Shown here in pieces: positions 3,402 to 15,969 of a stretch of DNA of 32,000 nt. Location of the stretch: contig NZ_CP074694.1 in assembly GCF_018398935.1 (NCBI RefSeq), positions 5,520,001 to 5,552,000 on the forward strand, in the 5' to 3' direction. A program made the translations under genes and the position numbers. Within the stretch, counting starts at the first letter, position 1. Every line of letters begins with the position of its first letter. Source of the stretch: Telmatocola sphagniphila. Its GTDB lineage: Bacteria > Planctomycetota > Planctomycetia > Gemmatales > Gemmataceae. The notes below the pieces were generated by a model. It had not been told where the DNA came from. It made no database searches and saw nothing but the letters and a program-made list of their open reading frames with translations.

Positions 3402-3998
3402 ATGAAACGTTTGCTCTTAACGACGATCTGCCTCTTAAGCGTCGGCTACTCCCTGCCCGTCCGCGCTCAGGAACCCTCCGGAGTAGATGAGCGAGCCCGC
3501 GGTGAGTTCATCCATCGTGATTCCGGAACCCTGTTCAAAACTCCTCCCGGCTGGAAGGCCATCACTCCACAGCGCTTGCGCCGCGATGCTAAAACCAGTG
3601 TCATGGGGCTCGAACGGCCCAACGATGTGAATGTGATCGTGAACGTGACCTACTCGCCGCTGGAAGGCCGAAAGTTCAGCGATTCGGTGAATTCGGCGCC
3701 GGATTCGAATGGCGAGTACGGCGAAGAACATACCATGCTGACGACCATTTACGGCAAGGATCGCGTGAGCAAGCCGCAACTCATGCAGGTGGGCGGTTTC
3801 GCAGTGTACAAGATCAAGGTGGAGTCCGGGGCGTTTCCGGAAGATCAATCGGTGGGACTGGTCTACCTGTTCGAAAGCGGCCTCAGCGACAAGCGCTGGA
3901 AAATCAAGGTGCGGGCGAATGTGCCGAAGATCGCGGAAGCGGCTGATACCGAAGCACTGAATTCCCTGCTGAATGCGTTCAGTGTGGAAGGGCGATAG
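3402..3998 (+). CDS. secreted hypothetical protein (signal peptide)
   Basis: ATG at 3402 is preceded by GGAG (3392-3395). The N-terminus MKRLLLTTICLLSVGYSLPVRAQEP looks like a cleavable signal peptide. The track start at 3327 (TTG) would sit on the divergent permease start codon, so the internal ATG is preferred. No family recognised. Confidence 0.6.
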   Translation: MKRLLLTTICLLSVGYSLPVRAQEPSGVDERARGEFIHRDSGTLFKTPPGWKAITPQRLRRDAKTSVMGLERPNDVNVIVNVTYSPLEGRKFSDSVNSAPDSNGEYGEEHTMLTTIYGKDRVSKPQLMQVGGFAVYKIKVESGAFPEDQSVGLVYLFESGLSDKRWKIKVRANVPKIAEAADTEALNSLLNAFSVEGR

Positions 3999-4013
3999 GG
4001 CAGTAGCAAATTG

Positions 4014-4080
4014 CTTCGTTCACCCGCCTGTTTTCGTTAGCCCGCCTGTTTTCGTTCACCCGCCTGTTTTCGTTAGCCCG
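4014..4080. repeat. tandem 18-bp repeat, units alternating CACCCGCCTGTTTTCGTT / AGCCCGCCTGTTTTCGTT (about 3.5 units)
   Basis: Read directly: ...cttcgtt cacccgcctgttttcgtt agcccgcctgttttcgtt cacccgcctgttttcgtt agcccg. It generates the artefactual PPVFV / NENRR peptide repeats in ORFs 3973..4530(+) and 3979..4188(-). Confidence 0.9.
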
Positions 4081-4233
4081 ACGCGTCAGCGAGGGCAGAA
4101 CGAAGCGATATTTATCCAAACCCAAAAGCATAGCACCGGATACGTTTTCACCAGACGTTCCGGATCCCCATCGCAAGAAGTTGGACATGGATATATGTTT
4201 TGTATCTTGCCCTCGATGACTCGTCGGGCTAAC
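4072..4233. repeat. 26-nt inverted-repeat pair bracketing 110 nt (MITE-like or structured element)
   Basis: 4072-4097 gttagcccgacgcgtcagcgagggca matches the reverse complement of 4208-4233 tgccctcgatgactcgtcgggctaac at 24 of 26 positions. An internal hairpin ccggaTacgt...acgttccgg lies at about 4136-4163. Confidence 0.8.
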
Positions 4234-4510
4234 AGTCCCTGTCAGATCTATTTTTCTGCAGAATTGATTTGTCTCAAATATCTATCTTGCATTTCAAAAA
4301 GAGGGCAGAACGAAGCGATATTAATCCAAACCCAAAAGCATAGCACCGGACACGTTTTCACCAGACGTTCCGGATCCCCATCGCAAGAAGTTGGACATGG
4401 ATATATGTTTTGTATCTTGCCCTCGATGACTCGTCGGGCTAACAGTCCCTGTCAGATCTATTTTTCTGCAGAATTGATTTGTCTCAGATATCTATCTTGC
4501 ATTTCAAAAA
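4091..4510. repeat. 2 x 210-bp head-to-tail tandem duplication
   Basis: Unit 1 (4091-4300) and unit 2 (4301-4510) both begin gagggcagaacgaagcgata and end cttgcatttcaaaaa. I count 3 differences (tttatcc/ttaatcc, ggatacg/ggacacg, ctcaaat/ctcagat). Confidence 0.95.
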
Positions 4511-5076
4511 GTTCGGCCCGTCTTCATTGACACTTTTTCTATTCCCCAAGCGCATGATCCTGTCGCCCGAGCTAAAAATCAGTCTTTCTATTCTTCGGTA
4601 GATTAATCCTCTTCCCGTGCAGGTGCTACCAGAAGCGAATAGAGCGATGACACATTCCTTTCCAGTTCTTCATAGTTCGATTACAAAAGATTCTCAATAA
4701 AAACTTCTCGGTTAGCCGTTCGAATTCGAGCAACTTCTCGTTCCCAGGCTGTTTCGGCAAAGGGACCGTAGAGAGGTTATTGTCCCGGTAAACCGTGAGA
4801 AAACGATCAAAAATGAGAGATATTGGCTTGTTTGTAATTGTTCGCCCGGGTAGTATTTCCTGATTGTGCCCTCCTCCCAGGGTTTCGCTCTTGATCTTGA
4901 AGATTAAGACATTTTTATTTTGACATCGTCCTTTCTGTGCCGCCGACGTCGGTTGATCGAGGCGTTAGTCACGCAGAGGACTTCGCGGTGCTTCGGCTCC
5001 GAGGTGAAAACTCCTGTGACCCAGTTCTTCAATAACCATATTTTCATTATTTTTTGATTTTGGGAGACAAAATAAA

Positions 5077-6369: not shown

Positions 6370-6385
6370 TTGATCTACTGCTGAG

Positions 6386-6527
6386 TGGTGGTTATCTGCC
6401 AGAGGGAAGATCGGGCCTCTGAAAAGGCTTCCATCCTTCTCCAGAGGCTATGTTAACTTAGGAATTCGATCGTTATCTGGTTTGAGTGAGGGAGTTATCT
6501 GGAATACGCACTAGCAGATAGACAGTG
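6386..6527 (+). repeat. R1a: structured repeat, short relative of the S1/S2 elements
   Basis: 6386-6493 aligns with 7829-7936 (R1b) along its length. Internal hairpin CCTCTGAAAAGG-cttccat-CCTTCTCCAGAGG. It shares, in the same order, GG(C/T)TATCTGC, AATTCGATC, GGGAGTTAT and CT(A/G)GCA(G)ATAG(A/C)CAGTG with the centre of S1 (11972-12084). Confidence 0.6.
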
Positions 6528-6854
6528 ATTCCCGCCGCCGCGCATCTCGGGGAGCGATATCATCTGATTGGCGAAGGCGATTACGAGATCCGAATCCGGA
6601 TCGAAAGCACAACCCGGAAGCGGGAGAAGATCTATTACTTCCTACGGGTGTAAGGTATCTCCTGACAGGAACATTTTCTCGACGTGCTACATTTTAAGCA
6701 TCCCGCCGTTGATTGAGAATCTGTGGGAGTCGACGCGGAACTCGACGCGGCGGGATCTTTCGTCTCGATCTGATCTTCTGAATATTCGAGCCAATTCCCA
6801 ACATTAAAGAAGAATCCCGAAATCACATCAATTAGGTGCTTAATATTAGTCCCA

Positions 6855-6889
6855 TGCGTAAGGGTTTACCAAGGGTAAACCCTTACGCA
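6855..6889. promoter_or_regulatory. 16-bp perfect-stem palindrome / hairpin (loop AAG) about 45 nt upstream of the 6934 ORF
   Basis: tgcgtaagggtttacc-aag-ggtaaacccttacgca read directly. No T-tract follows, so it is not a canonical intrinsic terminator. Operator or recombination-site function is speculative. Confidence 0.7.
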
Positions 6890-6933
6890 GCGGTCAGGAG
6901 AAAAGGTATTCCACTTCTCGCGATTAGTATTTG

Positions 6934-7257
6934 ATGGCTTGCGGAATTATGGATGGTAGCCTTGAAAAAACGAGAGGAATTACCTTGTCCGCAGAAATTT
7001 CCAAAAGCTCGGCTCAGCAAGTTCAAAACTTCAATTCGCTGGCGCGAGACTTACGATTACGTGGCTTGCATCTGATCGAATGGAGTTATCGTCTGGAATC
7101 TACTCCCAAGGAGTGGGAGGAATCCGCTTTGCTGGATTTCATCGACCAGCTTCAGAAAAAGAGCCAGTTTTGGCAGCAGGAAATCGAAGATGCTTATATC
7201 GAAAAAGACACCCTGTCAAATGGAACTCTGCTAGAGCTAGACGACCGAGACCTGTAG
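6934..7257 (+). CDS. hypothetical protein (predicted helical, acidic C-terminus)
   Basis: ORF 6931..7257 in the track (TTG); ATG at 6934 is preferred. No recognisable motif. It lies between R1a and R1b. Confidence 0.45.
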   Translation: MACGIMDGSLEKTRGITLSAEISKSSAQQVQNFNSLARDLRLRGLHLIEWSYRLESTPKEWEESALLDFIDQLQKKSQFWQQEIEDAYIEKDTLSNGTLLELDDRDL

Positions 7258-7332
7258 ACCCAGAGGTTTTTCAGCTGTTGATGCAACTCAGCTCAGCTTA
7301 ACGTGCATAATCGGTAATAATTGTCTCAAACC

Positions 7333-7746
7333 ATGAATCTTGACCGTACGGGGTTTGATTCAAATGGCTCGATTCGATTTTTGTTGATTTCCTCTCGTTC
7401 CAATTTCAGAGAATCTTCCTCTCAAATGATACTTAATACGAATGTTCCCTTTCAGCTTTTTAGCCGGTCAGGCGAACCAATTTGGGATAATGTGGAACTG
7501 ATTCATTCAGGTTCTATCGTCGGTGCAATTTCTCTCCAAAACGCTTGTGTAGTTGAGAAAGCTCCCTCCGCAACGAAGCTGAATAAGGGGTCAATTTACA
7601 TCCTTGTCGATACCCAAGGGAACGGAGCTAAGATCCAAATTTATGAGACACCTGCGGAACTAGCTCAGATTGAACCCTTATACGTCTTTGTTTATGTGAA
7701 AACAGGTTATGATTTTTCCAGTGAAAATGCTAGCAGAAGCCCGTGA
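7333..7746 (+). CDS. hypothetical protein
   Basis: ORF 7321..7746 in the track starts at TTG; the first ATG is at 7333 (MNLDRTGFDS...). It is beta-rich in appearance with no recognisable motif. Confidence 0.5.
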   Translation: MNLDRTGFDSNGSIRFLLISSRSNFRESSSQMILNTNVPFQLFSRSGEPIWDNVELIHSGSIVGAISLQNACVVEKAPSATKLNKGSIYILVDTQGNGAKIQIYETPAELAQIEPLYVFVYVKTGYDFSSENASRSP

Positions 7747-7828
7747 GTACAAATCTACAGATCTCAATTGCGGCCATGGAGCAACCTAAGACTTCAGAGA
7801 TAGGACGGGTAGTCTTCGCCCTCCGGCT

Positions 7829-7941
7829 GGGTGGCTATCTGCCCGAGCGCGAAAGATCGAGCCTCTGAAAAGGCTTCAATCCTTCTCCAGCGGCTATGTT
7901 AACTTAGGAATTCGATGGTTATCTGGTTCGAGTGAAGTGGC
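7829..7941 (+). repeat. R1b: second copy of the R1 repeat, 3' part cut by an IS end
   Basis: gtggctatctgcccgagcgcgaaagatcgagcctctgaaaaggcttcaatccttctccagcggctatgttaacttaggaattcgatggttatctggttcgagtgaag parallels R1a. Similarity stops where the IS terminus TGTCCCGAACC begins (7942). Confidence 0.65.
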
Positions 7942-8618
7942 TGTCCCGAACCGAATTCTGGTCGCATTTGTAGCCGAATTAAAGCTGTAGGGATTTTGGC
8001 ATTTTGAAGAGTGTTTTGCCAAATTCCAGGGAATTTTGGAGCGGTCTGTGGGCCGAGACCGGGGTGCTGCGATGGGCCGGCGTAGTCGGGCACGAGTCGC
8101 CGCCGTTCGCCGTTTATTGCCGAAGTGGTCCAAGAATTTTTGCGGCGAGAAGGCGTGTTCGGCTTGTACTCTCCGCCGAGGAGGCCACAATATAACGGTG
8201 CGATCGAAGCGGGCATTGGATCTATGAAAAGTCGAATCGAACGTAGAGCTGCCTGGGAAGGCCATCCGGAAGTGTGGAACGCTGAGGATGTGGAGGCGGC
8301 TCGACGGGAAGCCAATGCCTTGGCTCGACCGAGAGGAGGTCTGGGTTCTACTCCAGAGACGCTTTGGAAAAGTCGGGAGAGAGTCACGACAGAATCTCGC
8401 GATCAGTTCTGAGAGCTTGTTGAAATCCATTGGAACCGAGCTATGAAGGAGGATGGAAAATCTCCTTCGGGAGTGTTGCTCGAGCAGGAAGCTCGCCGTA
8501 TGGATCGAATTGCTTTACGCCGTGCTCTCGTTGATCACGGCGATCTTTTGTTCAAGAGGGGGCCAATTCCTCTAGGAATTAAATCGCAAAAAACGGCAAA
8601 TATTACGTGAGGGGTACA
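7942..8618 (+). mobile_element. internally deleted IS element with TGT...ACA termini and an rve/DDE transposase remnant (IS3/IS481-like; family unresolved)
   Basis: Left end TGTCCCGAACCGAATTCTGGTCGCA... recurs at 15708. Right end ...AATATTACGTGAGGGGTACA recurs at 10853. The interior is only about 680 bp and the transposase reading frame starts mid-domain. Confidence 0.65.
8086..8610 (+). pseudogene. transposase fragment, integrase-core (rve) C-terminal part, with in-frame TGA at 8410-8412
   Basis: The frame opens right after a TAG at 8083. The sequence ...SPFIAEVVQEFLRREGVFGLYSPPRRPQYNGAIEAGIGSMKSRIE... matches the S.P..P..N..IE....G..K pattern around the third catalytic acidic residue of DDE/rve transposases. 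The same frame continues past the TGA to a stop at 8608-8610 (...MDRIALRRALVDHGDLLFKRGPIPLGIKSQKTANIT). Confidence 0.65.
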
Positions 8619-9994: not shown

Positions 9995-10134
9995 GTATTT
10001 CCTATGGTAGATATTGTGCACTAACTAGATTCTTCCGTATTCATCGCTGTGAGCTGTTGAAATTTATTTTTTTAATTCGCACTCGATCAGAAGGTCAGGG
10101 ACACTTTTGACAGCGCGAAAAACCTGGGGAATGT

Positions 10135-10659
10135 ATGAAACGAGTGATGTATTTATTATTTTTTGTATTTTTATTTGACTTAATAGGGTGCTCACCGGAA
10201 CCCTTGGTTCAATCAAATCGACGCCAAACTCAACAGGAAAAAAAAGAATCTGAAGCTTCCATTATTGGAAAATGGGAGCTTGTCAAATGTGTATTTAAGG
10301 GAAAAGAGGCTCCCTCTAATTTACTTCGAGATGTCGAAGTCATTATTGACACTGAAAAAATCTCATTTAAACCGGCAATTATTTCATCTACTGGCAGAAA
10401 TAAAGAGAAAACCGAATTCCGATTGGAAGGCAGTTTCAAGGCTAAGCTAAAATTCGATCCGTATCACAGTCCGCACTCCAACCTGGATCTCACTGTTGAA
10501 GAGGACGGTGAGAGTAATTTGCTGAAAGGCATCTATAAATTAGATGTTAACAATTTGAAGATTTGTGTATCACCTACTTCAGAGAGGCCTAAGGATTTTT
10601 CGTCTACTGATAGCTCAGATACCCGTTTACTTGAACTCAAAAGAAAAACTGATCAATAA
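10135..10659 (+). CDS. lipoprotein with TIGR03067-like (Planctomycetes-specific) domain
   Basis: Signal peptide plus lipobox (LFDLIGC). The body fits the TIGR03067 pattern as I remember it: GKWELVKCVFKGKEAP...KFDPYHSP..LDL...LKGIYKLDVNNLKICVSPTSERPKDFSS...LLELKRK. GGGGA precedes the ATG. Confidence 0.65.
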   Translation: MKRVMYLLFFVFLFDLIGCSPEPLVQSNRRQTQQEKKESEASIIGKWELVKCVFKGKEAPSNLLRDVEVIIDTEKISFKPAIISSTGRNKEKTEFRLEGSFKAKLKFDPYHSPHSNLDLTVEEDGESNLLKGIYKLDVNNLKICVSPTSERPKDFSSTDSSDTRLLELKRKTDQ

Positions 10660-10736
10660 TTTGTCAGGCACTTCTTCGAATTTTTAGTTCTTCTCTGAAT
10701 TTAGTGGCTGACTCCCTTGGGCATCATGCTGAGCCT

Positions 10737-10853
10737 ATGGATCGAATTGCTTTACGCCGTGCTCTCTTTGATCACGGCGATCTTTTGTTGAAGAGAGGGC
10801 CAATTCCTCTAGTAATTAAATCGCAAAAACGGTAAATATTACGTGAGGGTACA
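10737..10853 (+). mobile_element. solo right-end fragment of the same IS as 7942..8618
   Basis: atggatcgaattgctttacgccgtgctctc...aaatattacgtgagggtaca parallels 8500-8618 with a few substitutions or indels and ends at the same ...TACA terminus. Confidence 0.75.
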
Positions 10854-11020
10854 CCAAAAATACCTGTAGACAAATATGAAAAATAAAAAATCCCTAGACG
10901 GCTATTCTTCCGTAAATAAATATTAACACACCAGCGATGAATGGCCGCGGCAAAAAATACAATACTAGCGTACAAGAATGGGTAAAGCGATCCAACATCA
11001 AATATTCAAGGTGACACACA

Positions 11021-11692
11021 ATGAAAAAATATATATTATTTACATTATTTATGTCATTGCTACTTGTGTACGTTCTATATGTAAAAATTCAATCAAATTA
11101 CAATGCATCAAACAGGTTGGTAATTTATGGAAAGTTGACAGAAATATACTCATTGATACTTAAATATCAGGAAAAATATGATTCACCTCTCTCATCCTTG
11201 AATAAAGATAAGGTCAATAGTTCGTCATTAAGTTGGCGTGTTTTTCTCACTGAATTTATGGATTTAGATATATTTTCAGAATTTCAAATGAATTCTGGTT
11301 GGGATTCTGAAAAAAATTACAAGCTAATTAACAAAATGCCCGCTGTTTATGCTACCTTTTCAGAAAGAAATGATTTTACCAGCACCAGTTTTATTTTGAT
11401 AAATATACCTAAGTTTGATAGGCAAAACTCTCCACCGGCGACTCGAGTTCAATCATCAATTATAGATCAATCAATAATTGTGGCATACGTGCCTTTCATT
11501 AAAGAAATGTGGACTCAGCCGTCGAAATACGCGGATTCCACCGAATTGCAAAATGTAATATCGCAATCTCTAACTTCTGGCAAACATTTTGATAACATTA
11601 TTGTTCTGCAATTGAATGGCGAAATATATTCTTTAACCGCTGAGCAATTCAACGGTAGATTATTAAATCAAATAGCAAATATGAAATATTAG
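11021..11692 (+). CDS. DUF1559-like protein lacking the usual prepilin-type N-terminus
   Basis: N-terminal hydrophobic anchor MKKYILFTLFMSLLLVYVLYV. The segment LSWRVFLTEFMDLDIFSEFQMNSGWDSEKNYKLINKMPAVYATF mirrors the DUF1559 core (SWRV.LLPY.EQ..LY..F....PWDS..N..L....P.VY.CP). The ATG is preceded by AAGGTG. Confidence 0.55.
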   Translation: MKKYILFTLFMSLLLVYVLYVKIQSNYNASNRLVIYGKLTEIYSLILKYQEKYDSPLSSLNKDKVNSSSLSWRVFLTEFMDLDIFSEFQMNSGWDSEKNYKLINKMPAVYATFSERNDFTSTSFILINIPKFDRQNSPPATRVQSSIIDQSIIVAYVPFIKEMWTQPSKYADSTELQNVISQSLTSGKHFDNIIVLQLNGEIYSLTAEQFNGRLLNQIANMKY

Positions 11693-11907
11693 GAAATATT
11701 CGTCTTATTTTAATATTCGTCATCTGGAATACTTCTCCTTCTTACCCTGATACACCCGTTGTAGCATTTGCAATATCCTGGGAAGGAATTTCAATTCTCG
11801 GGATTGTTTTCAATCTATTTGCTTGGAGCGCAGTCGCGGCTGTCAAGCCCCCGAAAGCGTGTCCAGATTGGATCGGAGTGGGTTGATGTAAAAAATGGTT
11901 TATCCGT

Positions 11908-12150
11908 GGTGGCACTGGTAACCCTTTAGAATCACCGTAAGTCATTGTCAGGTAATGCTTTGGGTGGTACTGGCTATCTGCGGTTGCCTGAGAGAGAGAA
12001 ATCAGATAGACTTTTCGTCAAGTCCGAAACAAATTCGATCCGAAAGCGGGAGTTATATCGAAACGGCTCTGGCAATAGCCAGTGCCACAAAAACCGTTAC
12101 TGGATAATGACATGCGTTGATTTGGTTAGGTTACCAGTGCCACCCCGCCG
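11908..12150 (+). repeat. S1: approx. 237-nt imperfect palindrome / rod-folding element (candidate MITE-like foldback element or structured RNA)
   Basis: Three coaxial helices read directly. P1: 11908-11923 GGTGGCACTGGTAACC pairs with 12129-12144 GGTTACCAGTGCCACC (16/16). P2: 11941-11957 pairs with 12095-12111 (17 positions, 1 mismatch, some G-T). P3: 11964-11977 pairs with 12075-12088 (14 bp including one G-T). These enclose an approx. 80-nt apical region. The ORFs 11742..11945(-) and 11945..12157(+) read through it and both contain LPVPPR, a palindrome artefact. Confidence 0.8.
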
Positions 12151-12281
12151 ACAGTAGAGATTTAGTTAATAAGTGTTTATTTTTAGTTTATTAATATTAC
12201 TATTTAAATAGTTAATCTGGTTTTTAATAATACAACGTTGAAGGAAACCTTCGTAGTCCAGATTTCCCGAACTGAATGTTA

Positions 12282-12319
12282 ATTGCTATATTGACAAAAT
12301 AAATTTGATTAAATAATTT
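12282..12319 (+). promoter_or_regulatory. candidate promoter of the protease-PDZ gene
   Basis: Two readings are possible. Sigma70-like: TTGACA (12291-12296), a 17-nt spacer, then TAATTT (12314-12319). Bacteroidota-like: ATTG (12282-12285), 14 nt, then TAAATTTG (12300-12307), about 30 nt before the ATG, with no Shine-Dalgarno. The AT-rich context makes chance matches likely. Confidence 0.3.
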
Positions 12320-12337
12320 ATCGTTTTGGATAAAACA

Positions 12338-13465
12338 ATGAAATATATTTTCTGTCAAATCCTATTTTTGATTGCAGGCCATTCATGCTTTGGACAAAAA
12401 ACAGACGTTGCTAATTATATAATTGAGGTAATTAAAATACCTAATAATGGAAAAGCCATTCTGGTACCAATATCTATCTCTAATAAAAAATATTTGTTTT
12501 TGTTCGATACTGGAGCAGCACGTTCTGCATTTGATATTCGATTGCCAGTTAAAGATGCCTCTCTTACAACGGAGCTGGCTGTAGGAACTTCCGGATCAAA
12601 AGAGTTGCGAACTGGCAAACCAGGAGATGGATATCTTGGTCGGATGAATATTAAAGATTCAATAAACAATGTTTGGCTAGATAACATGTCGAATCTTCGG
12701 AACTCTTTAGGCAAAGAAGTTTATGGTGTTTTGGGATTAGATTTTATTGTGAACAAAATTATTCAAATAGATTTTGACAATGGCGAGCTTAGATTTCTGG
12801 ATAAAATCAAAGAACCGCCAGGAGATGTTTACGATCTCTCTATAAACAAAATCGGTCAAGTTGAAATAAGTGCAAAGCTGAACGATTCTATACTGGACAA
12901 ATTTGTTGTTGATACAGGCTTCATTTCCACACAGAGTGGTTTTCTAAAAGAGGATACGTCAAGCGCGCTCAAAATCAACACAAAGTTCCACATGGTCGGC
13001 GATGGCATTTTTCAGGGAATAGCTGGGGAAAACACTCAATCGTTTACGCAATTTGACACTATTAAATTTGGCGATAAATTAATCAAAAAGCCGATATTCA
13101 CAATCAATAATACTAGTATTCTTAGCAATTACTTTCTGTCTCGTTTTTTGGTGACAATTGACTATTCTCAAAAAAAAATATATCTAAAACCAGGAAAGAA
13201 TTATACAAAAAAAGACTTGTATAATTTGAGCGGTATGCACCTCCTGGTTGACGATAAAAAAATTATCATCGATGGGCTGGATGAGGGAAGTGTGTCCAAG
13301 AAATCGGGAATTCTTATTGGCGATCAGATTTTCAAATTAGAAACTATCGAATTGGCTAAACTTGACGTAGAAGATTTAAGGATTTTGCTTAGTACTCCTG
13401 GAGATTTAAAATTAACAATTCAGAGAAAATCTAAGATGATTGATTTTGTTTTGCGTTTAAAATAA
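12338..13465 (+). CDS. secreted retropepsin-like aspartyl protease (two DTG lobes) with C-terminal PDZ domain
   Basis: Signal peptide MKYIFCQILFLIAGHSCFGQ. Two catalytic-type motifs are present: LFLFDTGAARSAF and KFVVDTGFISTQSG. The C-terminal approx. 85 aa (GMHLLVDDKKIIIDGLDEGSVSKKSGILIGDQIFKLETIELAKL...LKLTIQR) looks like a PDZ fold. The track start at 12326 is TTG, so ATG 12338 is preferred. Confidence 0.7.
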   Translation: MKYIFCQILFLIAGHSCFGQKTDVANYIIEVIKIPNNGKAILVPISISNKKYLFLFDTGAARSAFDIRLPVKDASLTTELAVGTSGSKELRTGKPGDGYLGRMNIKDSINNVWLDNMSNLRNSLGKEVYGVLGLDFIVNKIIQIDFDNGELRFLDKIKEPPGDVYDLSINKIGQVEISAKLNDSILDKFVVDTGFISTQSGFLKEDTSSALKINTKFHMVGDGIFQGIAGENTQSFTQFDTIKFGDKLIKKPIFTINNTSILSNYFLSRFLVTIDYSQKKIYLKPGKNYTKKDLYNLSGMHLLVDDKKIIIDGLDEGSVSKKSGILIGDQIFKLETIELAKLDVEDLRILLSTPGDLKLTIQRKSKMIDFVLRLK

Positions 13466-13749
13466 TATTTTTTGTGAAGAACACTAGGTTTTTTCTTTAG
13501 TTTACTTAGTTACGAATGATTCGTATGTAATTCGCTTGGAGCCACAATCGCCCGTATTCTGTTCATACAATGAAGTGATCCGTAAATGCCTAAAACGAAT
13601 TTCGGATTATTAGTAATTTCAAGTTAATTTAAGGTTGAAAGGCGAATGAAATTCCTAAAAAATCATTAAATTCGATTCTAGCGAGACTGCTACAGAAATC
13701 GCAAGCGGATCCAGGTAACGAAGCGTTGAAGGGGCGCGTCGGCTCGACG

Positions 13750-13993
13750 GGTGGCACTGGTAACCCTTTAGAATCACCGTAAGTCATTGTCAGGTAATGT
13801 ATTGGCTGACACTGGCTATCTGCCGTTGCCTGAGAAAGCGAAATCAGATAGACTTTTCATCAACTCCGAAACAATTTCGATCCGATAGCGGGAGTTATAT
13901 CGAAACGGCCGGTGGCAATAATCAGTACCACCCAAACTGTTACTCAATAACGACTTGCGTTGATTTAGTTCGGCTACCAGTGCCACCCCGCCG
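13750..13993 (+). repeat. S2: second, partly decayed copy of the S element
   Basis: The first 50 nt (13750-13799) are identical to S1 11908-11957. The rest is colinear with scattered substitutions. The terminal helix is GGTGGCACTGGTAACC / GGCTACCAGTGCCACC (1 mismatch), and the P2/P3 arms carry several mismatches. ORFs 13797..14078(+) and 13816..14004(-) read through it. Confidence 0.8.
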
Positions 13994-14232
13994 TGCAGGC
14001 TCACTTTGCCAAAGAGAAAGCTTCTTCTCTCTTGGCCAAGGCGTGAGTTATTACACGAGACTCTCGCAAAGAGATTAGCTCAGTTGGCTGCTCGTGGGCA
14101 GACCTATAAAGGAGCAAGAGTCAAACTCGTCAAGGAAGTAGATAGCTCGTACTTCCTTGGCGTAAAAATTCCTCACTTTAAATTTACGTACGAAGTGAAA
14201 TAGCTGCGGTCCATTGCTACGAGGATCAACAA

Positions 14233-14445
14233 ATGAACGAAATCGAACGCTTTTTCCATGATCTTTCACGAATCGCTCCCTTCATGGAAGAATTAGTGAT
14301 GGTACCGGAATCACACTTCTTTTATGATGTTTTTAGTGGATCTATTGTGTTGCCTGATGAATTGCCAAAAGCTGCACCTATTAGTTTTGATTGCCTTCGC
14401 TTTGTCTTTAAATATAGAACAGGATTGCAAGTCGGAGAGCCGTAG
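14233..14445 (+). CDS. small hypothetical protein; possibly the 5' part of a 99-codon gene interrupted by an in-frame TAG
   Basis: ATG at 14233 is preceded by GAGGA. After the TAG at 14443-14445 the same frame continues PSLELFWKEANRCFPKWIGFSPKRMNWS to TAA at 14530-14532. Confidence 0.4.
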   Translation: MNEIERFFHDLSRIAPFMEELVMVPESHFFYDVFSGSIVLPDELPKAAPISFDCLRFVFKYRTGLQVGEP

Positions 14446-14555
14446 CCATCTTTAGAACTCTTTTGGAAAGAAGCGAATCGGTGTTTCCCAAAATGGATTG
14501 GCTTTTCACCGAAGCGCATGAACTGGTCTTAAAAAAATTGAAAAGGCAGATCGTT

Positions 14556-14897
14556 ATGCGGCACTACGTATTGTTTAGATGTATTATAGCTCTGAATTAT
14601 TTAGTTGCTGGCTGTTCTTTTTTTATGGCTGCATATGGCCATCACAAGTTTTGGTTGTCTTCTATAGAAAAATGTTCTAGAAATATTCTTTTTATATTCG
14701 AACCAAAGCTAACGAATGATACTATGGAGCAGCAGAAAAAATTAATTGAAATGGAAAGTGAGATTCGAGTATCATCCCATCTTGTAAATGTATCCGGCGA
14801 AATCGGTTGGCATTTGGCCACCCTCATATCTTTAATTACCGCAATTGGCTTGAAATACATCTATAGGAAAATTAAAAATAATCAGTTCAACATGTAA
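14556..14897 (+). CDS. small two-TM membrane protein (hypothetical)
   Basis: The internal ATG at 14556 of ORF 14463..14897 gives MRHYVLFRCIIALNYLVAGCSFFMAAYG... with a second helix WHLATLISLITAIGLKYI. The upstream part of the track ORF overlaps the previous reading frame. Confidence 0.45.
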   Translation: MRHYVLFRCIIALNYLVAGCSFFMAAYGHHKFWLSSIEKCSRNILFIFEPKLTNDTMEQQKKLIEMESEIRVSSHLVNVSGEIGWHLATLISLITAIGLKYIYRKIKNNQFNM

Positions 14898-15016: not shown

Positions 15017-15244
15017 TGAACTGAAATTTGACTTTGGTTGTTCAAGTGACGAAACTCTAATTTAGGAGCCTCGTCATGAGCCAATTGAACGCCGAGAACA
15101 ATTCGAGAGAACGTCGTCATTTCAGCCCGGCTGCCAAGGTGGCCATCCTGCGACAGCATTTTCTGGAAGGTAAAGCCATCTCGGAGATCTGCCAGAACGA
15201 AGAGATCGCCGTCACTCAGTTTTTGTAAACGCCGGTCGAAAAGG
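15017..15244 (+). mobile_element. IS3-family left-end fragment with truncated orfA
   Basis: A TGAACTGAAATTTGAC... terminus (IS3-type TGA start) is followed by AGGAG and a 50-codon ORF (15076..15228). That ORF, MSQLNAENNSRERRHFSPAAKVAILRQHFLEGKAISEICQNEEIAVTQFL, fits the IS3 OrfA HTH pattern (RR.FS...K..IL......G....EIC....I....F) and stops where an ISL3-like end begins. Confidence 0.5.
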
Positions 15245-15600
15245 GGCTCTGTCGCCCAGTTGGTGACGAGCGTTGGTTAGAATGTCTTCAGGAATTCATT
15301 CTGACAGGACGCAGCCTCATGACTCTGCAGGACCTCTTTCCTCAAGAGGCCGGTTTGGTCGTTACCGATTTCGCTCTCACTCCGGATCTTTTGGCCCTTG
15401 CTCTAAAAACCACATGCCCGAGTTCGCAGTGCCCCGACTGTGGCCAGCGGACAGATCGGATTCACAGCCATTATTGGCGGGTATTGGCGGACTTACCCTG
15501 GCAAGCTCGACGAGTATTGCTCCGGATCGAACTGCGAAAATTTCGATGCATGAATGCCGCTTGCCCCAGGCAAATCTTCTGTGTACGGCTACTATGAACT
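15245..15600 (+). mobile_element. ISL3-family left-end fragment with truncated transposase
   Basis: The GGCTCTGTCGCCCAGTTGGTGAC terminus resembles ISL3-family GGCTCTT... inverted repeats. ORF 15319..15597 carries the N-terminal zinc-finger region. Confidence 0.5.
15319..15597 (+). pseudogene. ISL3-family transposase, N-terminal zf-ISL3 fragment only
   Basis: ...CPSSQCPDCGQRTDRIHSHYWRVLADLPWQARRVLLRIELRKFRCMNAACPRQIF matches the ISL3 pattern CP.CG....R.HS.Y.R...DLP......L.....RF.C.N..C....F. The frame then terminates, so the catalytic domain is absent. Confidence 0.65.
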
Positions 15601-15707
15601 ATAGCCGTGAGTTCGCTGAGTACTATGAGCAGGAACGTAAGAGAATTGAGTTAATTGACCGATAACGAGGTCAATAAATGGTCGCGGTAGGGACGGGGAT
15701 TACACCC

Positions 15708-15854
15708 TGTCCCGAACCGAATTCTGGTCGCACTTGTAGCCGAATTGAAAGCTGTAGGGATTTTGGCATTTTGAAGGGTGTTTTGCCGAATTCCAGGGAA
15801 TTTTGGAGCGGTCTGATGACCGAGACCGGGGTGTTGCGATGAGCCGGCATAGTC
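15708..15854 (+). mobile_element. solo left-end fragment of the same IS as 7942..8618
   Basis: tgtcccgaaccgaattctggtcgcacttgtagccgaatt...ccgagaccggggtgttgcgatgagccggcatagtc parallels 7942-8087, with about one indel and a handful of substitutions by eye. Confidence 0.75.
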
Positions 15855-15969
15855 CGGTCAGCGATCTCCACCCCCACCTTTGAACTCCGATCTCCCAACC
15901 CGTACGCTAATAAGTACCCAGGTAGAGCGAGCGAATATTCGGATGCCATGAGGGCGGGAGTCAACGAGC

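Follow-up and report, generated by a model that had tools for sequence, protein, structure and literature searches.

An unclassified foldback repeat, possibly akin to miniature inverted-repeat transposable elements, on either side of a protease gene in a low-GC variable island of Telmatocola sphagniphila

Within a 32,000 nt stretch of the genome of Telmatocola sphagniphila (contig NZ_CP074694.1, positions 5,520,001 to 5,552,000; called the window here, with position 1 as its first letter) there are two copies, S1 and S2, of a non-coding repeat that has the form of a long imperfect hairpin and that matches no known family. One copy is intact and the other is decayed in its interior, and between the two lies a single credible gene, encoding a protease. 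The reading favoured here, to which we would give about an even chance, is that S is an unclassified, non-autonomous foldback repeat resembling the MITEs, or miniature inverted-repeat transposable elements, and that it has been inserted separately, twice, in a variable island of low G+C content (GC) that is riddled with insertion sequences (IS). A first-pass annotation of the same DNA had described S1 and S2 as direct repeats bracketing exactly one gene, which is borne out, and had proposed that repeats and gene form an S-gene-S cassette, which is not supported. The two copies are placed as follows.

11908 to 12150, + strand: S1, intact copy of the foldback repeat (243 nt)
13750 to 13993, + strand: S2, decayed copy of the foldback repeat (244 nt)

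S1 and S2 have the same orientation, with 1,599 bp and one gene between them. A repeat search finds them as two pairs of blocks, 11908-12067 with 13750-13909 at 93% and 12070-12150 with 13913-13993 at 84%, with a 1 nt indel between the blocks, and in a global alignment there are 28 differences over 244 columns, which is an identity of 88.5% and a divergence of 11.5%. The same alignment agrees with the earlier description of the ends: columns 1-50 are identical, and the last 37 columns carry three differences, at columns 218, 222, and 225. There are 5 differences in the 5' arm and 13 in the 3' arm. The edges of the repeat are sharp: the flanks of S1 and S2 give no alignment above shuffled controls in any pairing or orientation. 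Logan contigs from the isolate's own reads (SRR14506984) have 100% identity to the window on both sides of each S. The sequence reads CCGT immediately 5' of S1 and ACAG immediately 3' of it, and GACG and TGCA in the same positions around S2. Separately, an imperfect palindrome (TTGCCAAAGAGAAAGCTTCTTCTCTCTTGGCCAA) is present at 14008-14042, 15 nt 3' of S2.

In S, two arms of 73 nt, 75% complementary to each other, enclose a branched centre of about 97 nt that is able to form several small hairpins. The terminal inverted repeat is 16 bp and is perfect in S1, with one substitution in the 3' tip of S2 (GGTAGCC for GGTAACC). An 11-mer, GGTGGYACTGG, is found at each tip of S, and each arm has a second copy 55 nt further in. 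The window has 10 matches to this 11-mer, where 0.42 would be expected, and 7 of the 10 are within S1 and S2: four are in S1 (11908+, 11963+, 12079-, and 12134-) and three recognisable copies are in S2. The remaining partner in S2, on the 5' arm at approximately 13805-13815 (GCTGACACTGG), is degraded past detection. The individual parts are listed below.

11908 to 11923, + strand: left terminal inverted repeat of S1, GGTGGCACTGGTAACC, the perfect complement of 12129-12144
12129 to 12144, - strand: right terminal inverted repeat of S1, GGTTACCAGTGCCACC on the + strand, an exact match
11963 to 11973, + strand: inner motif copy on the 5' arm of S1, GGTGGTACTGG, 55 nt inside the left tip
12079 to 12089, - strand: 3'-arm motif of S1, inner copy, which reads TGTGGCACTGG on the - strand and lies 55 nt in from the right tip
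13750 to 13765, + strand: left terminal inverted repeat of S2, identical to that of S1
13972 to 13987, - strand: right terminal inverted repeat of S2, GGTGGCACTGGTAGCC on the - strand, with one mismatch
13922 to 13932, - strand: 3'-arm motif of S2, inner copy, GGTGGTACTGA, with one mismatch

There is no conserved open reading frame (ORF) in S, a frame of 70 aa in S1 being shortened to 33 aa in S2, and a six-frame translation of S has no match among 5.8 billion proteins.

The decay of S2 has affected the inner motif copies and the inner helices. Twelve base pairs of S1 are altered in S2, with 10 broken, two changed from G-C to G-U, and none compensated, which confirms the earlier observation that mismatches in the internal arms of S2 break its helices. 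This unevenness fits copies of different age or constraint, and not a conserved RNA. The preservation of the identical 50 nt is not due to the helix, since the arm with which they pair is not matched in conservation. When 28 differences are placed at random, the probability of a longest identical run of at least 50 columns is 0.03, which is of moderate, suggestive significance. A constraint on the sequence of the left end and a short tract of gene conversion between neighbouring copies are equally good explanations, and both are adequate. The suggestion, made when the repeats were first noticed, that the termini are constrained is reasonable and stands in part: the intact tips, the motif repeated inward, the internal placing of the decay, and the copies of S ends hinted at by contig ends (see below) favour it, but the run itself is of only modest improbability and conversion accounts for it as well as constraint does.

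As a MITE-like element, S would be a non-coding, non-autonomous unit of about 244 bp bounded by its 16 bp terminal inverted repeats, and the four copies of the 11 bp motif would be potential binding sites, as predicted from their arrangement, for a transposase or recombinase. That enzyme would presumably act in trans, encoded elsewhere in the genome. S1 would be the structurally intact copy and S2 an older or unconstrained one, its inner sites and helices lost and its tips kept. Both would have arrived by separate insertions into intergenic spacers of a strain-variable island, which would mean that the protease gene is bracketed through its position and is not cargo.

The composition of the island bears on this. 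The window has a GC content of about 55%, with a block from 8.6 to 15.1 kb at 32-38% that contains small, co-oriented, mostly orphan genes. The GC content of S is 48%, that of the protease gene 34%, and those of the regions outside the repeats 32% (10855-11700) and 37% (14233-14897). Since the protease gene is similar to its outside neighbours in this respect, insertion of S into an existing low-GC block fits better than the joint arrival of S, gene, and S. The debris of mobile elements of which the neighbourhood is full (described below) is also in favour of insertion. That the island is variable is seen from a metagenome contig from the Joint Genome Institute (JGI) that is about 98% identical to the window over 10130-10854 and then diverges completely, at the right end of an IS (at approximately 10854). 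The content of the island to the right of this point, including S1, the protease gene, and S2, thus differs between close relatives. When an empty site was looked for, this relative, whose contig is 904 nt long and matches the gene at 10135-10659 at 98%, did not extend as far as S.

There are hints in the sequencing data that S has other relatives in the genome. A de Bruijn graph (k=31) made from the window alone predicts contig starts at 11928 and 13770, which is S column 21, and the end of the contig carrying the protease gene at 13779. The real Logan contigs begin, in two sequencing runs, at 12094 and 13937 (S column 188 of S1 and of S2), and the contig carrying the protease gene ends at 13777, 2 nt before the prediction. 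Next to column 188 is column 189, which pairs with column 50, the point at which the identity between S1 and S2 ends. Contig ends that are not predicted from the window (at column 188, and the one corresponding to 2 nt upstream of S2) would point to other sequences in the genome that have the ends of S. The simplest explanation is that the last 57 nt or so of S, in S1-like and S2-like versions, and the first 28 nt of S preceded by CG, are present elsewhere in the genome with a different interior. The breaks at column 188 and at 13777 imply either such copies of the S ends or structural variants, and they hint that S is a member of a multi-copy family with conserved ends.

The second of the two runs needs care. 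In SRR14506983 there is no exact match to the protease protein, but there are no exact matches to housekeeping genes either, nor to several other proteins of the window, and a 2 nt deletion of GC at 14514-14515 reduces an ORF of 134 aa to 113 aa. The likely cause is noise or fragmentation in an assembly of the same isolate, rather than a strain that is without the S1-protease-S2 segment.

Several results weigh against the MITE-like reading. No target-site duplication is found around S1, around S2, or around the whole unit with any choice of boundary that was tried, and after the right arm both copies have a 6 nt tail, CCGCCG, which is outside the inverted repeat and lacks a counterpart on the left. 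The window encodes no integrase, recombinase, or intact transposase in its 32 kb, and an autonomous partner is absent from it too. In searches for further copies, an nhmmer profile of S run against the window and all fetched loci finds S1 and S2 and nothing else, and BLAST searches of plasmids and phages with S and with the whole island give no match. Scans of metagenomes give no match, whether with both tips and the gap between them or with a 20-mer taken within the 5' stretch of identity, and a scan of viral contigs for S gives none. A 16-mer of the tip, which is too short a probe, gives chance single matches in unrelated genomes when scanned against a genome collection, none of them a true S by BLAST. 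The argument from contig ends is indirect and depends on how Logan terminates contigs. Finally, two insertions in the same orientation 1.6 kb apart are a coincidence that a MITE-like model leaves unexplained.

In their general character the copies of S are nevertheless similar to MITEs, being within the range of 50-500 bp, non-coding, intergenic, and bounded by terminal inverted repeats, with the whole element forming a hairpin and with copies that are unequally decayed. S differs from them in having no target-site duplication and no identified parent IS, and in that copies beyond the two are suggested only through contig ends. It differs also in its structure, with complementarity of the arms for about 73 nt and a second copy of the tip motif 55 nt inward. 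ERIC/IRU and Correia elements are likewise transcribable imperfect palindromes in intergenic regions whose copies are unequally intact, but no sequence similarity is known between these and S. S is also the longer, and its centre, of about 97 nt, is branched.

The gene between the repeats, and the spacers on either side of it, are as follows.

12338 to 13465, + strand: protease gene, the sole credible gene between the repeats, encoding 375 aa with the features of a retropepsin-like aspartyl protease and a C-terminal PDZ-like region
12151 to 12337, no strand: AT-rich spacer between S1 and the start codon of the protease gene (23.5% GC)
13466 to 13749, no strand: non-coding stretch between the stop codon of the protease gene and S2

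The protein has an N-terminal hydrophobic leader and, judged from its sequence, appears to be secreted. Its identification as a protease with a PDZ domain, made in the first-pass annotation, holds for the protease (Asp_protease_2, E=7.7e-7), with PDZ matches that are weak. Its distant homologues have the combination PF13650 and PF17820 and are aspartyl protease family proteins of the Bacteroidota type, and the best relative outside this genome has 27% identity. Since there is no relative above this level, there is no other gene context with which the locus can be compared.

That S might instead be a structured RNA, be it a small RNA gene, a cis-acting leader, or an insulator, on the + strand ahead of the protease and the next genes, we regard as unlikely. 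The predicted fold of S1 is far past that of its shuffled controls, with a minimum free energy of -111 kcal/mol on the + strand and a z of about -9 over 261 nt, and the + strand is 20 kcal/mol more stable as RNA than the - strand (-90.9). Both copies are co-oriented with all of the neighbouring genes, 8 of the 10 transition mismatches between the arms of S1 are G-U on the + strand, and unpaired columns, about one third of S, hold 15 of the 28 differences between S1 and S2, which is an enrichment. The G-U bias is not significant, however (binomial p about 0.11), and is absent in S2, where the ratio is 8:7 and the folds of -86.7 on the + strand and -89 on the - strand show no strand bias; when folded as DNA, both strands of S1 are also about equally stable (-53.7 on the + strand and -51.2 on the - strand). 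The lack of any compensation for the 10 pairs broken in S2 is a further point against an RNA, and two sequences with zero compensatory changes provide no support from covariation, for which no homologue was found. No Rfam family is matched at gathering thresholds in the whole window, and none overlaps S even at E<=10. Promoter-like matches in the spacer are at consensus level only, and neither promoter nor terminator signals exceed what is expected in shuffled sequence. A near-continuous helix of about 70 bp in which an 11-mer is repeated at a fixed interval is what one expects of inverted repeats at the level of DNA more than of a functional RNA. It is improbable, in turn, that S1 and S2 are immobile relics of a local duplication or rearrangement that were later partly homogenised by gene conversion. 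That two copies only are seen, co-oriented and 1.6-1.8 kb apart, would be in keeping with such an origin, and an identical tract of 50 nt at one end resembles a conversion tract. Similarity between the copies nonetheless stops short at the tips of a perfect inverted repeat and the flanks share no homology, which is not expected of a segmental duplication, and the contig ends point to copies of the S ends elsewhere. A plain tandem or segmental duplication was rejected for the same lack of flank homology.

Readings in which the gene travels with the repeats draw on the arrangement itself. The layout of S1, protease gene, and S2 is that of the published TIME-COMPs, in which a segment of 1.2-4.8 kb that carries one gene or a few is enclosed by two miniature elements derived from Tn3, 209-288 bp long and either direct or inverted; of these elements TIME244 is 244 bp and MITESen1 is 256 bp, and the loss or gain of segments by recombination between copies has been discussed (PMC13367494). 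S is nearly equal to them in size, and its two direct copies bound 1,599 bp and one gene. It would be rather unlikely, even so, that S1-protease-S2 is a composite mobile unit of this sort, or alternatively a circular molecule of S and gene that has integrated into a resident S. The outermost tips of both copies are intact, the island is strain-variable and the protease in it an orphan, and recombination could take place within the 50 nt of perfect identity; indeed, excision or amplification through recombination between S1 and S2 in this tract is plausible in principle. The hallmark of a TIME-COMP, however, is a direct repeat of 5-6 bp outside the outermost inverted repeats (PMC13367494), and the outer ends of the S1-S2 unit, ...TATCCGT on the left (TATCC or TCCGT) and (CCGCCG)TGCAGG on the right (CCGCC or TGCAG), do not match. 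The divergence of the two copies and the loss of the inner sites of S2 are against a composite, as is the similarity in GC content of the protease gene to the genes immediately outside, and a search for S-gene-S elsewhere, with the protease or with other cargo, or for the empty site, found none. The location in a planctomycete-like chromosome and a cargo that is not a resistance gene are also different from TIME-COMPs. Inverted repeats of the Tn3-family TIMEs are about 38 bp, with a GGGG tip and a TAAG inner end (PMC13367494). A Tn3-derived TIME was rejected on three comparisons: a hidden Markov model built from 8 published TIME inverted repeats has no match at the ends of S, a relaxed two-block pattern of GGGGT...TAAG is found at 5 sites in the window where 8.8 are expected, and the Smith-Waterman scores of S1 against TIME244, IS101, IMU, and MITESen1 are within those of shuffled controls. 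The ends of S do read G(T/G)GGT...CACCGTAAG, with the spacing off by 2 nt, which is a lead only. A site-specific recombination site, either an oversized relative of attC or a res-like site with multiple subsites, in a minimal, recombinase-less cassette array similar to a CALIN, is quite improbable. S is similar to such sites in being an imperfect palindrome between small, co-oriented genes that are orphans around the pair. It has no target duplication, and CG or CCG stands at both junctions. Near the base of the stem there are single bulged bases, and AAC and GTT triplets lie one base from a symmetric 5x5 internal loop that is followed by a 6 bp helix, a geometry only loosely reminiscent of attC. 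Its candidate R boxes, TGGTAAC and GTTACCA, nonetheless agree with RYYYAAC and GTTRRRY at only 4 of 7 positions each, and known attC sites are 57-141 nt long, so that S, at 244 nt, is about twice the maximum. There are only two S sites, and no similar hairpin stands at other junctions between genes of the island. The would-be cassette lacks compactness, with 188 nt and 284 nt of non-coding sequence, and neither a tyrosine nor a serine recombinase is encoded in the 32 kb. Very improbable, lastly, is that S is the recognition site of an undescribed planctomycete gene-shuffling system, which would use a folded site of 244 nt with four copies of the 11 bp motif and with the conserved 50 nt end as its functional core, a site-specific recombinase encoded elsewhere, and modules of a single gene that would be inserted, excised, or exchanged, as in an integron-like cassette system whose sites are of a new kind.

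Two further candidates were rejected. S1 and S2 are not the template and variable repeats of a diversity-generating retroelement, the differences between them affecting all four bases and not adenine specifically, with no reverse transcriptase in the window; nor does the window encode the reverse transcriptase of a retron or of another pairing of RNA and partner gene.

If the MITE-like reading of S is correct, an unclassified foldback family would be added to the scanty catalogue of mobile DNA in this phylum, and S would mark a strain-variable island that gains and loses orphan genes, which would be useful for annotation and unsurprising. If copies of S elsewhere bracket other single genes, the implication would be of more weight, namely a repeat-mediated shuffling of genes distinct both from integrons and from the Tn3-derived composites.

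The gene content of the window is otherwise planctomycete-like, including a TIGR03067 domain protein (10135-10659), a Ser/Thr kinase with TPR repeats, and a leucine-rich repeat (LRR) protein; for the other genes of the island no relatives were found. The IS at 7942-8618 carries an internal deletion; its ends read TGTCCC...GGGGTACA, and it has a fragment similar to the C-terminus of a DDE transposase. Its right end is found again, on its own, at 10716-10854, and its left end recurs at 15707-15857. The ends of these remnants (TGTCCC...GGGGTACA) differ from those of S. At the right edge of the island, 15078-15665 is a mobile-element graveyard, in which a truncated IS3-type OrfA (HTH_Tnp_1, E=3.5e-4) is found together with what, by eye, resembles a truncated ISL3-type zinc-finger N-terminus.

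Another pair of direct repeats, E1 and E2, is present at 6385-6540 and 7826-7941, with approximately 85% identity over 121 nt, bracketing the ORFs 6931-7257 and 7321-7746; E2 is interrupted by the IS at 7942. A few 9-12-mers (TGGCTATCTGCC, AATTCGATC, GGGAGTTAT, and CAGATAGAC) are common to E1/E2 and S, and E1 shares a CCCGCCG tail with S. Kinship between S and this pair was rejected, the resemblance being marginal (P about 0.005-0.03), with no similarity at the level of alignment and with E1 not significantly structured.

Elsewhere in the window, an 18 nt tandem repeat of 3.3 copies at 4015-4074 and a 210 nt tandem duplication of two copies, 98% identical, at 4091-4511 are both within the doubtful ORF 3973-4530. 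Between genes at 6855-6889, there is a perfect 16 bp stem with a 3 nt loop (TGCGTAAGGGTTTACC AAG GGTAAACCCTTACGCA).

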